A stretch of 5,266 bases of DNA from a virus (lineage: Duplodnaviria; Heunggongvirae; Uroviricota; Caudoviricetes). How positions within the stretch are numbered: position 1 is the first letter of the stretch; each line of letters begins with the position of its first letter. Where the stretch lies: the IMG/VR virus record IMGVR_UViG_2671180651_000012, positions 1 to 5,266 of that record, one strand, 5' to 3'. A program made the position numbers and the translations under genes. Below, piece by piece: positions 3,376 through 3,933 of this stretch. The notes under the pieces are model-generated. The model saw nothing but the letters and a program-made list of their open reading frames with translations. It had not been told where the DNA came from and ran no database searches.

Positions 3376-3408
3376 CTGAGGGGTCTGTTACTCGAGAGGA
3401 AATTGGTT

Positions 3409-3609
3409 ATGAATACAATCAAGTTTTCTTGCCCAGAATGTGGCGGCGAAGTCTTTGACACATCCTTTAAACCGCATGGCTCTGACAGTTTCGCGGGAGC
3501 CATCTGCAAAAATTGTGGTCACCTTGTAACTGAAGATGAGTCCTCGCAGTTTGATGACGAAATCGTTGACAATATCTTCGGTGCACTCACCAGAGACTTT
3601 CTGAAGTAA
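3409..3609 (+). CDS. small zinc-ribbon protein (66 aa; CPECGG-x26-CKNCGH)
   Basis: ATG at 3409-3411 with GAGAGGA (3394-3400) 8 nt upstream; TAA at 3607-3609. Two CxxCG motifs spaced as in a zinc ribbon, acidic C-terminal tail. A strong hairpin plus U-tract follows 45 nt downstream. Runs opposite to the surrounding minus-strand operon and is fully overlapped by antisense ORF 3388-3744. Confidence 0.6.
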   Translation: MNTIKFSCPECGGEVFDTSFKPHGSDSFAGAICKNCGHLVTEDESSQFDDEIVDNIFGALTRDFLK

Positions 3610-3653
3610 AGGCGCATACCGCTTAGTTACCGCTCTGATAATTCTTACCTGTC

Positions 3654-3700
3654 CGGCAATGGCGCTGATATCAATATAAAGCGCCATCGCTGTTTCTTTG
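3654..3700 (+). terminator. rho-independent terminator-like hairpin for the plus-strand zinc-ribbon gene
   Basis: 8-bp perfect stem ATGGCGCT (3659-3666) / AGCGCCAT (3680-3687), extendable to about 12 bp with one mismatch (3654-3657 with 3689-3692); 13-nt loop; followed directly by TTTCTTT (3693-3699). No U-tract on the minus-strand side. Confidence 0.5.
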
Positions 3701-3933
3701 CTGATCCCTGGATGCCTTCCATTCTGATGTTTGACTTCGCCCACTGAGAAATCCTCTGTTTCCCCTTAACGCTGGGGTAGCGGAACAAAAACCTGCTGCA
3801 TAGTTATTAAAGTTGAACCCTGCCGTCATGTTCTTACGCCTCGGGCTGGCTACTTAACCCCTGACCACTGCCTGGTAACTCGAAGTATTGCCCTGCATTC
3901 TGTGGAGCGGGGTGAGTTGGTATGAAAAGAAGG

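Follow-up and report, generated by a model that had tools for sequence, protein, structure and literature searches.

A Zinc-Ribbon Gene Probably Nested Antisense Within a Second Protein-Coding Gene in the Immunity Region of a Lambda-Like Escherichia coli Prophage

Introduction

Antisense overlapping genes have been reported in E. coli O157:H7 and Pseudomonas, among them ano/ECs2385, asa, pop/ompA, and olg1/olg2 (PMC5960689, PMC9927249, PMC8850804, bioRxiv 2020.11.18.388249). None of three novel EHEC overlapping-gene candidates was in a phage-derived region (PMC9927249). Phage cis-antisense RNAs are also known, such as lambda OOP/cII, P22 sas/sieB, and BTP1 STnc6030, and loci that lie antisense to the lytic genes of a prophage are, as a rule, accessory genes that the lysogen expresses (PMC7067206).

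The window analyzed in this study (5,266 nucleotides, IMG/VR record IMGVR_UViG_2671180651_000012) is the Rac/Qin-like immunity region of a lambda-like E. coli prophage. A small plus-strand zinc-ribbon ORF (hereafter Z) lies wholly inside a minus-strand ORF (hereafter S). As in the known antisense overlapping genes, one ORF is embedded antisense in another, each has expression signals of its own, and selection analysis was also used. Unlike them, the Z/S locus belongs to the control region of a prophage, and its conservation extends across genera, down to approximately 25-35% identity. Constraint is stronger on the inner gene, which has a complete predicted promoter-to-terminator cassette. The known pairs rest mainly on expression data, whereas Z/S is known here from sequence alone. 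The Z transcript would be complementary to the early transcript, as are the phage cis-antisense RNAs; however, OOP, sas, and STnc6030 are non-coding, whereas the predicted Z transcript encodes a conserved protein. Z also resembles the sieB-type genes of the lambda/Rac leftward operon and the prophage morons, since it runs against the operon behind the same leader (a variant in Rac sieB) and has its own putative terminator. Z and SieB are not homologous, and nesting in an open antisense frame, a constant feature of Z, is absent from sieB and from most of the remaining cargo genes.

We believe that two protein-coding genes occupy this locus, one on each DNA strand, and we give this reading a probability of about 65%. 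Selection probably keeps both reading frames, so that one DNA stretch would encode two proteins. If both are real, Z/S would rank with the more deeply conserved cases of antisense dual coding in bacteria or their phages, independent of low-level expression signals.

Results

Genomic Context of the Locus

The window was assigned to a Rac/Qin-type immunity region because it carries DicF, DicB, ydfC, the repressor, and YdaS/YdaT-like genes. The prophage repressor (4014..4433, minus strand) matched phrog_5736, "transcriptional regulator" (E=4e-70), and its C-terminus is weakly DicA-like. A leftward early promoter was predicted from the sequence at 3931..3971 on the minus strand, with a -35 box TTTACT (3959-3954) and a -10 box TATCCT (3936-3931). 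The same interval (3931..3971, minus strand) holds predicted operators, the palindromes TACCCATGGGTA and TACCTATGGGTA. This layout mirrors the rightward promoter at 4481-4508, which reads TTGACT-16-TATTCT and has matching palindromes. The leader of the leftward early transcript (3745..3930, minus strand) is 86-99% identical across more than 4000 E. coli genomes, K-12 Rac among them, and carries no annotation there. A put-like or structured RNA at 3745-3935 was considered and rejected, with no Rfam match, a folding z-score of 0.16, and no HK022 match.

S is the first gene past this leftward early (PL-type) promoter, and it is codirectional with the operon in every context examined, PL-side and PR-side alike. 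The operon genes after S span 2342..3316 on the minus strand. They include ydfC (3098-3316, minus strand, PGAP annotation), the DicF sRNA (2705-2756, minus strand, Rfam match of 75 bits), and dicB (2342-2530, minus strand, Pfam and NCBIfam matches); recE also lies downstream of S. The initial annotation placed Z at 3409-3609 on the plus strand and S at 3388-3744 on the minus strand, and both ORFs are located there. It also described Z as antisense in the early-left operon, which agrees with the position of Z just downstream of the operator-flanked leftward promoter. Z points against the surrounding lytic operon, and the cargo at its slot varies among related phages.

The Plus-Strand Gene Z

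Z (3409..3609, plus strand) has 66 codons, from ATG 3409 to TAA 3607-3609, and belongs to the ECs_2282 zinc-binding family. It matched NF047912 (NCBIfam ECs_2282) with 57.4 bits and E=1e-15, above the cut-off of 37, and covered 56 of the 60 profile positions. PGAP labels Z as an ECs_2282 family putative zinc-binding protein in a near-identical prophage of strain 14EC001. The motif is CPEC-x21-CKNC (C8, C11, C33, C36), which corrects the x26 spacing given earlier, and the C-terminal tail is acidic. Homologues with 60-97% identity were found in E. coli, Citrobacter, Klebsiella, and Enterobacter. Across 11 lineages, C8, C11, C33, C36, G30, and G37 are invariant. The ATG is also invariant, and the length is fixed at 66 aa throughout the main family.

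Zinc binding by Z is putative and was predicted from the family and the two CxxC pairs; the family name is silent on function and on the opposite-strand gene. A profile search of PDB sequences with Z gave a weak match to the CPxCG zinc-finger protein 8q5b (E=0.012, below significance). Z shares the CPxC...CxxCG pattern and the small size of these CPxCG-related proteins. It is also like generic zinc ribbons (TFIIB, RPA12, L37a) in pattern and size, but all zinc-ribbon matches in a Pfam search were under the gathering scores. A T4 lysozyme match from the PDB profile searches was judged spurious. The AlphaFold model of Z (pLDDT 57, low; shallow alignment) was too uncertain for fold assignment, and AlphaFold2 models contain no metals. 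Foldseek searches of the models against BFVD and PDB returned no match at E<=0.001. PADLOC anti-phage defence profiles matched Z only weakly (E=0.0015-0.009) and S not at all. For the regulator or anti-defence role that the initial annotation suggested for Z, these searches gave no meaningful PADLOC match and no fold match. A scan of genome contigs with the Z alignment gave just two chance zinc-ribbon matches, and ECs2282 was mentioned in no paper found in the literature search.

Leader and 3' Hairpin of Z

The Z Shine-Dalgarno sequence AGAGGA (3395..3400, plus strand) is 8 nt ahead of the ATG, and an AAGGA/GAGGA motif occupies the equivalent position in all lineages. Upstream is a conserved, promoter-like leader element (3340..3375, plus strand; GCCTG-CTTTTA-ACCAC-GT-CAGGC-GA-GGTGG-TATCCT). 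It can be parsed as a -35 box TTAACC (3348-3353), a 16-nt spacer, and an extended -10 box TGgTATCCT (3367-3375). Across lineages the pattern is TTnACC, a 16-nt spacer, and TGgTATnCT, with 8/12 consensus positions. The promoter scan left the leader unflagged because the consensus match is just 8/12. We infer that the leader is a promoter; this assignment is by consensus alone, and the element also resembles a structured RNA. Two interleaved inverted repeats in it covary in an RNA-like manner. A further inverted repeat, CCTCTGAG...CTCGAGAGG (3373..3399, plus strand), includes the Shine-Dalgarno sequence of Z in its 3' arm. It folds in every lineage with differing arms (CTTGG/CCAAG, CCTTTTAA/TTAAAAGG, and others).

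The leader stands ahead of Z even in distant lineages, and in IMG/VR prophages at least 25 small, unrelated ORFs follow it. In related prophages this leader is followed, at the Z slot, by different small genes that also run rightward, sieB among them. The form ahead of Rac sieB is a variant, and the sieB versions are without the -10 TAT. HK022 put-type antiterminator RNAs (putL/putR) form two stem-loops in the sense transcript, downstream of an early promoter. The likeness of the leader to HK022 putL is confined to one hairpin loop, CTTTTAACCAC versus CTTTAAACCAT, and its orientation is opposite to the leftward early transcript. The EDL933 transcription-start supplements contained no match to the leader.

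A hairpin with a T-rich tail (3653..3700, plus strand) lies 3' of Z, overlaps the internal ATG 3687 of S, and was read as the Z terminator. The hairpin and U-tract of the initial annotation are present, with details corrected: the arms are ATGGCGCT (3659-3666) and AGCGCCAT (3680-3687), the loop is 13 nt, and CGCTGTTTCTTTG follows. The consensus terminator scan missed this hairpin because its loop is longer than 8 nt. Of its eight consensus pairs, three show compensatory changes. A G-U pair in 8/11 sequences would become an A-C mismatch on the S strand. In the Z sense the hairpin folds at a mean energy of -15.3 kcal/mol, versus -12.0 in the S sense; most lineages have T-rich tails. The 3' hairpin is conserved and favours the Z strand. 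Taken together, Z appears to be a self-contained cassette embedded in S, with the leader (3340-3375), the Shine-Dalgarno sequence, the ORF, and a putative terminator (3653-3700).

The Minus-Strand ORF S

S (3388..3744, minus strand; PHROG 21318) has 118 codons from GTG 3744 to TAA 3390-3388. Its Shine-Dalgarno sequence AGAGGA (3752..3757, minus strand) is 7 nt upstream of the GTG; this signal and the 135-nt extension past Z were both reported correctly in the initial annotation. The GTG start and Shine-Dalgarno sequence are kept in E. coli-group homologues, one of which (L014) has ATG for GTG. An alternative start at ATG 3687 gives 99 codons, the PGAP form WP_001240336 in other strains. In other lineages, a strong Shine-Dalgarno sequence lies ahead of the start equivalent to 3687. 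All lineages inspected have a start and a Shine-Dalgarno sequence for S, less clearly so in L011. The length from the conserved start is 93-118 aa, some lineages have longer upstream in-frame calls, and in every lineage S stops at, or close to, the beginning of Z.

S matched phrog_21318 with E=1.8e-66 over positions 1-99 of 99. It thus matches PHROG 21318/WP_001240336 over the full length, and the literature searched contained no mention of this family of phage proteins or of its overlap with the zinc-ribbon gene. A HMMER search with the S profile returned approximately 10 clusters, all in the same nested module; S is therefore without free-standing relatives. No Pfam or NCBIfam domain matched S, and a profile search of PDB sequences found nothing. 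The AlphaFold model (pLDDT 68, modest; shallow alignment) predicted a helix-helix-hairpin-helix arrangement. S was also considered as a lambda N-type antiterminator, a largely disordered kind of protein, and rejected: its N-terminus is without an arginine-rich motif, there is no Pfam, NCBIfam, or PHROG homology to N, and the model is the helical fold just described.

The part of S outside Z, region A (3610..3687, minus strand; 26-27 codons), was analyzed separately. In 26 unique sequences, the S frame alone was stop-free. It also had the lowest dN/dS-like ratio, 0.46 versus 0.64-1.27 in the five other frames. The mean pairwise differences at codon positions 1, 2, and 3 were 0.38, 0.34, and 0.58, respectively. 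D6, Q13, and P26 are nearly invariant, and the sole indel in the main set is one codon, in frame.

Null Alleles and Annotation

A Z-null allele with S intact (TAA at codon 14) was found in 516 complete E. coli genomes and 13 IMG/VR contigs. A second allele (TAG at codon 44, minus frame intact) was found in one contig. The O157:H7 strain PV15-279 has two prophages with the locus, one with an intact Z and one with a Z-null copy. No S-null allele was present among 38 unique sequences. The initial annotation had named homologues with an interrupted plus frame and a conserved minus frame, or the converse, as evidence that would refute its reading. Such homologues do occur, in the 516 genomes and the one contig, but they are recent alleles within a family that otherwise keeps Z. 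Judging by how common the first allele is, at least one prophage lineage can do without Z. These natural alleles are separation-of-function material for experiments.

PGAP annotates Z alone when Z is intact and annotates S where Z has a stop, and PHROGs and several phage annotations call S. Because pipelines allow one gene per locus and alternate between Z and S, one of the two conserved proteins is always absent from the records.

Open Reading Frames on Both Strands

S overhangs Z at both ends, by 135 nt and 21 nt. The initial annotation gave convergent genes as one of two possibilities; the arrangement is one of nesting and goes beyond mere convergence. Z and S are in codon-complementary register (the same triplet phase), so S can acquire a stop only through a TTA, CTA, or TCA codon in Z. 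We compared lineages from E. coli, Klebsiella/Citrobacter, Enterobacter, and metagenomes, together with phage KP12 and a 76-aa Z-like family. Both frames are open in approximately 11 lineages, down to approximately 25-35% identity, and the S frame is also open in phage KP12 and in the 76-aa family. In a single genome, an open antisense frame is unremarkable, and approximately 40% of the tips in simulations under Z coding only were still open at matched divergence. The antisense frame open in every lineage is beyond chance.

This result bears on the reading that Z is the sole gene and S a shadow frame, open since Z happens to lack TTA, CTA, and TCA. One open 66-codon shadow frame is a common event, PGAP annotates just Z where Z is intact, and S is without a domain or fold match. 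Moreover, the conserved residues of S within the overlap mirror those of Z, and the amino-acid identity of S in the overlap was 0.50, against 0.49 predicted by a relaxed Z-only model. The overall identity of S was dropped as a test statistic because the models are not told apart by it. Since the overlap identity equals the Z-only prediction, it is the open frame, the rates by substitution class, the region unique to S, and the controls that carry the case for S. At matched synonymous divergence, S stayed open in all 16 tips in 0/1000 Z-only simulations (P<0.003); at lower divergence, it did so in 0.3-2% of runs. TCA makes up 22% of the Ser codons in these loci. TCA/CTA codons occur in Z at codon 2 only, exactly at the S end. 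Approximately 30 other cargo ORFs behind the same leader carry 1-11 antisense stops each, with one exception. In addition, the 27-codon stretch of S that lies outside Z is coding in no frame but that of S, and the start and Shine-Dalgarno sequence of S are conserved. With the substitution rates given below, we consider it unlikely that Z is the sole gene.

The opposite reading, in which S is the sole gene and Z a shadow ORF with an accidental cysteine pattern, is very improbable. It could draw on the operon direction followed by S in every context (PL-side and PR-side), the Z-null/S-intact allele, and the calls of S by PHROGs and several phage annotations. However, the four Cys demand an A at the synonymous third base of Thr/Ala codons of S in every lineage. 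In S-only simulations, no run retained all four Cys, and Z stayed open in 2% of runs or fewer (P<=0.02). The four-fold sites of S in the overlap are 85% identical, versus 45% in a non-overlapped control. Z further has an omega of 0.32 and scores above the NF047912 cut-off; its ATG is invariant and its length fixed, and it comes with a Shine-Dalgarno sequence, a leader, and a hairpin that favours the Z strand. The initial annotation called the plus ORF real from its ATG, Shine-Dalgarno sequence, zinc ribbon, and downstream hairpin with U-tract, and the NF047912 match, the invariant Cys, the omega value, and the conserved hairpin agree with this call. Z looks like a real gene.

Purifying Selection on Both Frames

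The comparison of conservation and dN/dS in each frame, proposed with the initial annotation, showed that both frames are constrained. Omega_Z was approximately 0.32 (0.32-0.33; bootstrap CI 0.21-0.47), and omega_S was approximately 0.51 (0.51-0.52; CI 0.37-0.70). The suggestion that only one ORF is real is thus not borne out, since the minus ORF too shows purifying selection.

A total of 335 changes in 38 sequences were sorted into four classes, in which the first letter gives the effect on Z and the second that on S. These counts were made by parsimony on a neighbour-joining tree, cover approximately 11 lineages, and ignore recombination, which is frequent in these mosaic phages. The rates relative to opportunity were 3.36 (SS), 1.75 (SN), 1.10 (NS), and 0.56 (NN). 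NN/NS was 0.51 and SN/SS was 0.52, and the bootstrap CIs of NN/SN and NN/NS both exclude 1. Control shadow frames from 43 ordinary gene clusters in the same loci had a median NN/NS of 1.08 and a minimum of 0.72, and the NN/NS and SN/SS of the Z/S overlap were under all 43. The known shadow ORF opposite recE gave 0.78, versus 0.36 for recE. Six columns have an invariant S residue and a variable Z residue, and 0.6 were expected.

These rates also bear on a reading in which S is translated but its protein is irrelevant, the open frame preventing Rho-dependent polarity on ydfC, dicF, dicB, and recE. S does head a long operon without an N-like gene, its overlap identity does not exceed what the Z-only model predicts, and it matched no fold or function. 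However, a spacer ORF should tolerate changes in length, and S, measured from its conserved start, keeps to 93-118 aa and has its stop at or close to the start of Z in every lineage. The ratio of 0.46 and the near-invariant D6, Q13, and P26 in region A, the NN/NS of 0.51 in the overlap, and the six S-invariant columns likewise speak against it. We regard this reading as quite unlikely and prefer two protein-coding genes.

Discussion

Given two protein-coding genes, the anatomy of the locus suggests how they may be expressed. S would be made once the repressor leaves the operators at 3931-3971, and thus only after induction. Z would be transcribed from its own promoter in the lysogen, as are other genes antisense to prophage lytic operons (PMC7067206); by this analogy we infer that Z is expressed in the lysogen. 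Strong leftward transcription would collide with the transcription of Z. The fully complementary Z and S RNAs may also pair, the 3' end of the Z mRNA covering the start region of S. Because of transcription collision and RNA pairing, the two products would tend toward opposite expression states. The mutual-interference switch proposed in the initial annotation is compatible with the anatomy of the locus.

S and Z might further form a functional couple. In that case Z would act in the lysogen, for example in exclusion, in modifying the host, or as a toxin, and S, made only on induction, would be its antidote or counter-switch; the roles could also be swapped. As an antisense brake, the Z transcript would also keep leaky leftward expression of the toxic dicF/dicB operon in check. 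Antisense nesting would hold S and Z together, because recombination cannot split shared base pairs. Such a couple can be likened to P22 sieB/esc/sas or bstA/aba, from which it would differ in that both partners are proteins encoded on opposite strands. We consider this proposal tentative and rather unlikely.

Z/S occupies the control point of the dicF/dicB operon, and the slot that it fills is hypervariable and holds small genes of the lysogen type. In view of this position, its function may bear on prophage induction, superinfection exclusion, or host cell division. The nested Z/S module is present in more than 1300 complete E. coli genomes, O157:H7 among them.

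Genomic context of the overlapping reading frames

The window covers the immunity and early-left regions of an E. coli prophage of lambdoid (Rac/Qin-like) type. The minus strand carries a RecE-like exonuclease gene (1-2064), a DUF1482 gene, dicB (2342-2530), the full-length DicF sRNA (2705-2756, Rfam 75 bits), ydfC (3098-3316) and the repressor gene (4014-4433); YdaS-like and YdaT-like genes are on the plus strand. Two sets of -35/-10 hexamers, a leftward one at 3931-3971 and a rightward one at 4470-4508, are bordered by matching palindromes (TACCCATGGGTA and similar). Because of the palindrome-flanked hexamers at 3931-3971, a leftward early transcript is expected, which should begin at about 3925, cross 3744-3388 and continue into ydfC, DicF and dicB. 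Its 5' leader (3759-3925, minus strand) was found at 86-99% identity in more than 4000 of the 5426 complete E. coli genomes, and lies unannotated between a ydaG-like gene and racR in K-12 Rac. This leader had no Rfam match, and its predicted stability was ordinary (z-score 0.16). Between DicF and dicB, an STnc100-like match (2498-2707, minus strand) was sub-threshold: it scored 34.7 bits, where the gathering score is 47. Between DicF and ydfC (2930-3094, plus strand), a near-identical strain has a PGAP-annotated rightward 'hypothetical protein' of 54 aa (WP_122994137).

The initial annotation described a plus-strand zinc-ribbon gene (3409-3609; here Z) and an antisense ORF (3388-3744; here S), and both are present as described. 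The Shine-Dalgarno sequences it named were also found, AGAGGA lying 8 nt before the ATG of Z and 7 nt before the GTG of S, as was a hairpin downstream of Z, which we located at 3659-3687 with a 13-nt loop. The cysteine spacing of Z, given as CxxC-x26-CxxC, is in fact x21. Z and S share triplet phase, their codons being reverse complements of one another; S can therefore be closed only at the Z codons TTA, CTA or TCA. In a single genome, an open antisense frame of this register is unremarkable. Public annotation of the locus is inconsistent: in strain 14EC001, whose prophage is near-identical, PGAP annotates Z (as 'ECs_2282 family putative zinc-binding protein'), and in strain 2013C-4465 it annotates instead a 99-aa minus-strand protein at this site. 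NCBIfam includes Z (NF047912, 57 bits vs a cut-off of 37), and PHROGs includes S (phrog_21318, E=1.8e-66).

Conservation of both reading frames

Homologues of Z with 60-70% identity were found in Citrobacter, Klebsiella and Enterobacter, and those of S reached down to 34-37% identity. The DNA of these homologues was compared together with IMG/VR contigs (conserved 20-mer), Klebsiella phage KP12 and a 76-aa Z-like family. Both frames were open in every lineage (about 11). In the main family, Z has 66 aa, and its ATG, stop position and four cysteines are all invariant; in distant lineages it has 63 aa (KP12) or 76 aa (the type of locus L190). The residues C8, C11, G30, C33, C36 and G37 are invariant over all lineages. 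From its conserved start S has 93-118 aa, with in-frame forms of up to 174 aa from gene callers in some lineages, and it ends at the Z start or a few codons past it. Stop-making Z codons (TCA, CTA) occurred only at Z codon 2, which is the exact end of S in those lineages. The direction of S is always that of the surrounding early operon, in which it usually stands first behind the repressor and leftward promoter; some Klebsiella and Citrobacter phages have it after cro, in the rightward operon. Z was antisense to the operon in all contexts.

A Shine-Dalgarno sequence precedes Z in all lineages. S has one together with a start codon in the lineages inspected, the start being less clear in the related locus L011. 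In the E. coli group S starts with the GTG or ATG that corresponds to 3744, and elsewhere its start corresponds to 3687. The hairpin 3' of Z has eight consensus pairs, and changes at three of them are compensatory. In 8 of 11 sequences one pair is a G-U, which would be an A-C mismatch on the S strand, and the mean energy was -15.3 kcal/mol in the Z sense vs -12.0 in the S sense. The T-rich stretch after it is the antisense of the purine-rich ribosome-binding region of S. We read hairpin and T-rich stretch as a putative Z terminator, and these features show Z as a nested cassette with its own putative terminator.

Selection on each frame

Simulations of evolution under selection on one frame used a 16-sequence neighbour-joining tree and local codon usage, with 22% of Ser codons being TCA. 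When only Z was selected, none of 1000 runs at matched synonymous divergence left S open in every tip, and 0.3-2% of runs did so at lower divergence. With selection on S only, Z was open in at most 2% of runs, and none kept all four cysteines. Identity between lineages was 85% at the four-fold sites of S, which shows constraint from Z, and 62% at those of Z; the comparable figure for the part of S outside Z is 45%. Overall S identity in the overlap was 0.50 vs 0.49 predicted by a relaxed Z-only model, so this statistic is uninformative on selection. Columns with S invariant and Z varying numbered 6 vs 0.6 expected under the Z-only model.

Substitutions were counted by parsimony (335 changes, 38 unique sequences) and classed as synonymous (S) or non-synonymous (N), first for Z and then for S. 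Relative to opportunity, the rates were SS 3.36, SN 1.75, NS 1.10 and NN 0.56. Conservation and dN/dS of each frame, which the initial annotation had proposed as a check, spoke for both genes: besides the open frames, omega was 0.32 for Z (NN/SN, bootstrap CI 0.21-0.47; 0.33 by NS/SS) and 0.51 for S (NN/NS, CI 0.37-0.70; 0.52 by SN/SS, CI 0.33-1.13). The same estimator was applied to the codon-complementary shadow frames of 43 ordinary gene clusters from the same loci, giving a median of 1.08 (minimum 0.72) for NN/NS and 0.98 (minimum 0.71) for SN/SS. An 80-codon ORF antisense to the recE-like gene (289-531, plus strand), whose open frame is kept in relatives, served as a further control; it behaved as a shadow frame, scoring 0.78, and recE itself scored 0.36. 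From these values and the 43 controls, the estimator therefore separates real from shadow frames. Caught blind in the control screen, the S cluster scored 0.44 (S) and 0.39 (Z). Over the 26-27 codons of S outside Z (3610-3687), the S frame alone was stop-free (26 unique sequences) and had the lowest dN/dS-like ratio, 0.46, the other five frames giving 0.64-1.27. In these codons, D6, Q13 and P26 are nearly invariant. By this comparison of related sequences, Z and S are shown to be two conserved, predicted coding frames, each with its own signals.

Earlier claims of antisense overlapping genes concern EHEC and Pseudomonas and draw mainly on expression data; three novel EHEC candidates come from one paper, none of them in a phage-derived region. 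Z/S differs from these pairs in lying in a prophage control region, in being conserved across genera, in having selection evidence on both frames that is calibrated against controls, and in that the inner gene Z appears to be a complete accessory cassette. The support for Z/S as an antisense overlapping pair is purely comparative. No paper on ECs2282 was found under that name, the only one looked for.

Natural Z-null alleles

Codon 14 of Z (3448-3450) was changed from GAA to TAA, an F to L change in S, in 516 of the 5426 complete E. coli genomes. Intact Z alleles were present in 856 (840 with the exact common allele and 16 with the window allele), and the TAA copy often shared an O157:H7 genome with an intact copy in a different prophage. 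One IMG/VR contig had an independent second stop, TAG at codon 44, which is synonymous in S. None of the 38 unique sequences had a stop codon in S. Some prophages can therefore do without Z, and they retain S. The initial annotation held that homologues with Z broken and the minus frame conserved would argue against the pair; they exist as recent alleles (codon-14 TAA and codon-44 TAG) but not beyond that level. The codon-14 allele is a natural separation-of-function allele.

Predicted properties of the two proteins

Z, which has an acidic tail, resembles a small CPxCG-type zinc ribbon. Among solved structures, its best sequence relative was 8q5b (E=0.012), and its Pfam zinc-ribbon matches were all below threshold. 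In the closer lineages only, residues 46-57 (about 3544-3579) form an acidic motif, QFDD(E/Q)I..D..F, near the C-terminus, which we take to resemble the SSB C-terminal tip DFDDDIPF. The predicted fold of S is helix-helix-beta-hairpin-helix (pLDDT 68). Fold and PADLOC searches gave no matches for either protein. S was also considered as an N-like protein, and this was rejected.

The leader element and the cargo slot

A conserved element, GCCTGnCTTTTnACCACnTCAGGCnnGGTGGTATnCT, precedes Z. As a promoter, it would consist of a -35 TTnACC and an extended -10 TGgTATnCT with a 16-nt spacer between them. The element (about 35 nt) holds two interleaved inverted repeats and, with a third repeat after it, spans 3340-3399 (plus strand). 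The first repeat covaries (GCCTG/CAGGC, CCCGG/CCGGG, GCCGGG/CCCGGC, GCCGGA/TCCGGC), as does the second (ACCAC/GTGGT, CCACG/CGTGG), which reads as in a structured, pseudoknot-like RNA leader. The third covaries in at least 10 versions, and its 3' end is always the Shine-Dalgarno sequence. The first hairpin has a loop similar to the one in HK022 putL.

At least 25 unrelated small ORFs (59-163 aa) lie behind the same element, every one of them running against the early operon; judged from these copies, Z is thus one of the cargoes carried at a hypervariable, sieB-type slot. The ORFs include a 66-aa ORF of BL21-type strains and, behind a variant form, sieB of K-12 Rac; the sieB versions are without the -10 TAT. 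Copies lie at about 1595-1660 of L003 (the Rac sieB leader), at 2490-2569 of L141, in L020 and in many IMG/VR loci. The antisense frames of about 30 other small ORFs behind this leader in related prophages contained 1-11 stops in all cases but one.

In prophages, a gene lying antisense to a lytic operon is typically an accessory locus that the lysogen expresses (PMC7067206). We infer that Z would be produced in the lysogen, where the leftward promoter is repressed. Upon induction, leftward transcription would yield S, interfere with Z transcription and pair with Z RNA. The Z transcript is the complement of the region where S starts, and it could reduce leaky expression from the leftward promoter ahead of the toxic dicF/dicB.

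The region at about 3006-3080 (plus strand) seems to be a variant of the Z leader that lacks a cargo (GCCGGATGCTCACCCGTGTCCGGC...CTCCACCTCACCCGTGGAG); its homologous sequence in L002 and L016 lies ahead of a 77-aa rightward ORF, which the window does not have. In the IMG/VR loci L235, L148, L154 and others, the cargo behind the leader is a protein of 106 aa (MSQPPINPLKNMKIDYWYK...) predicted to have two transmembrane segments. The codon-complementary antisense frame of this cargo is open for 211 codons in the one lineage represented, and the two may form a second nested pair.
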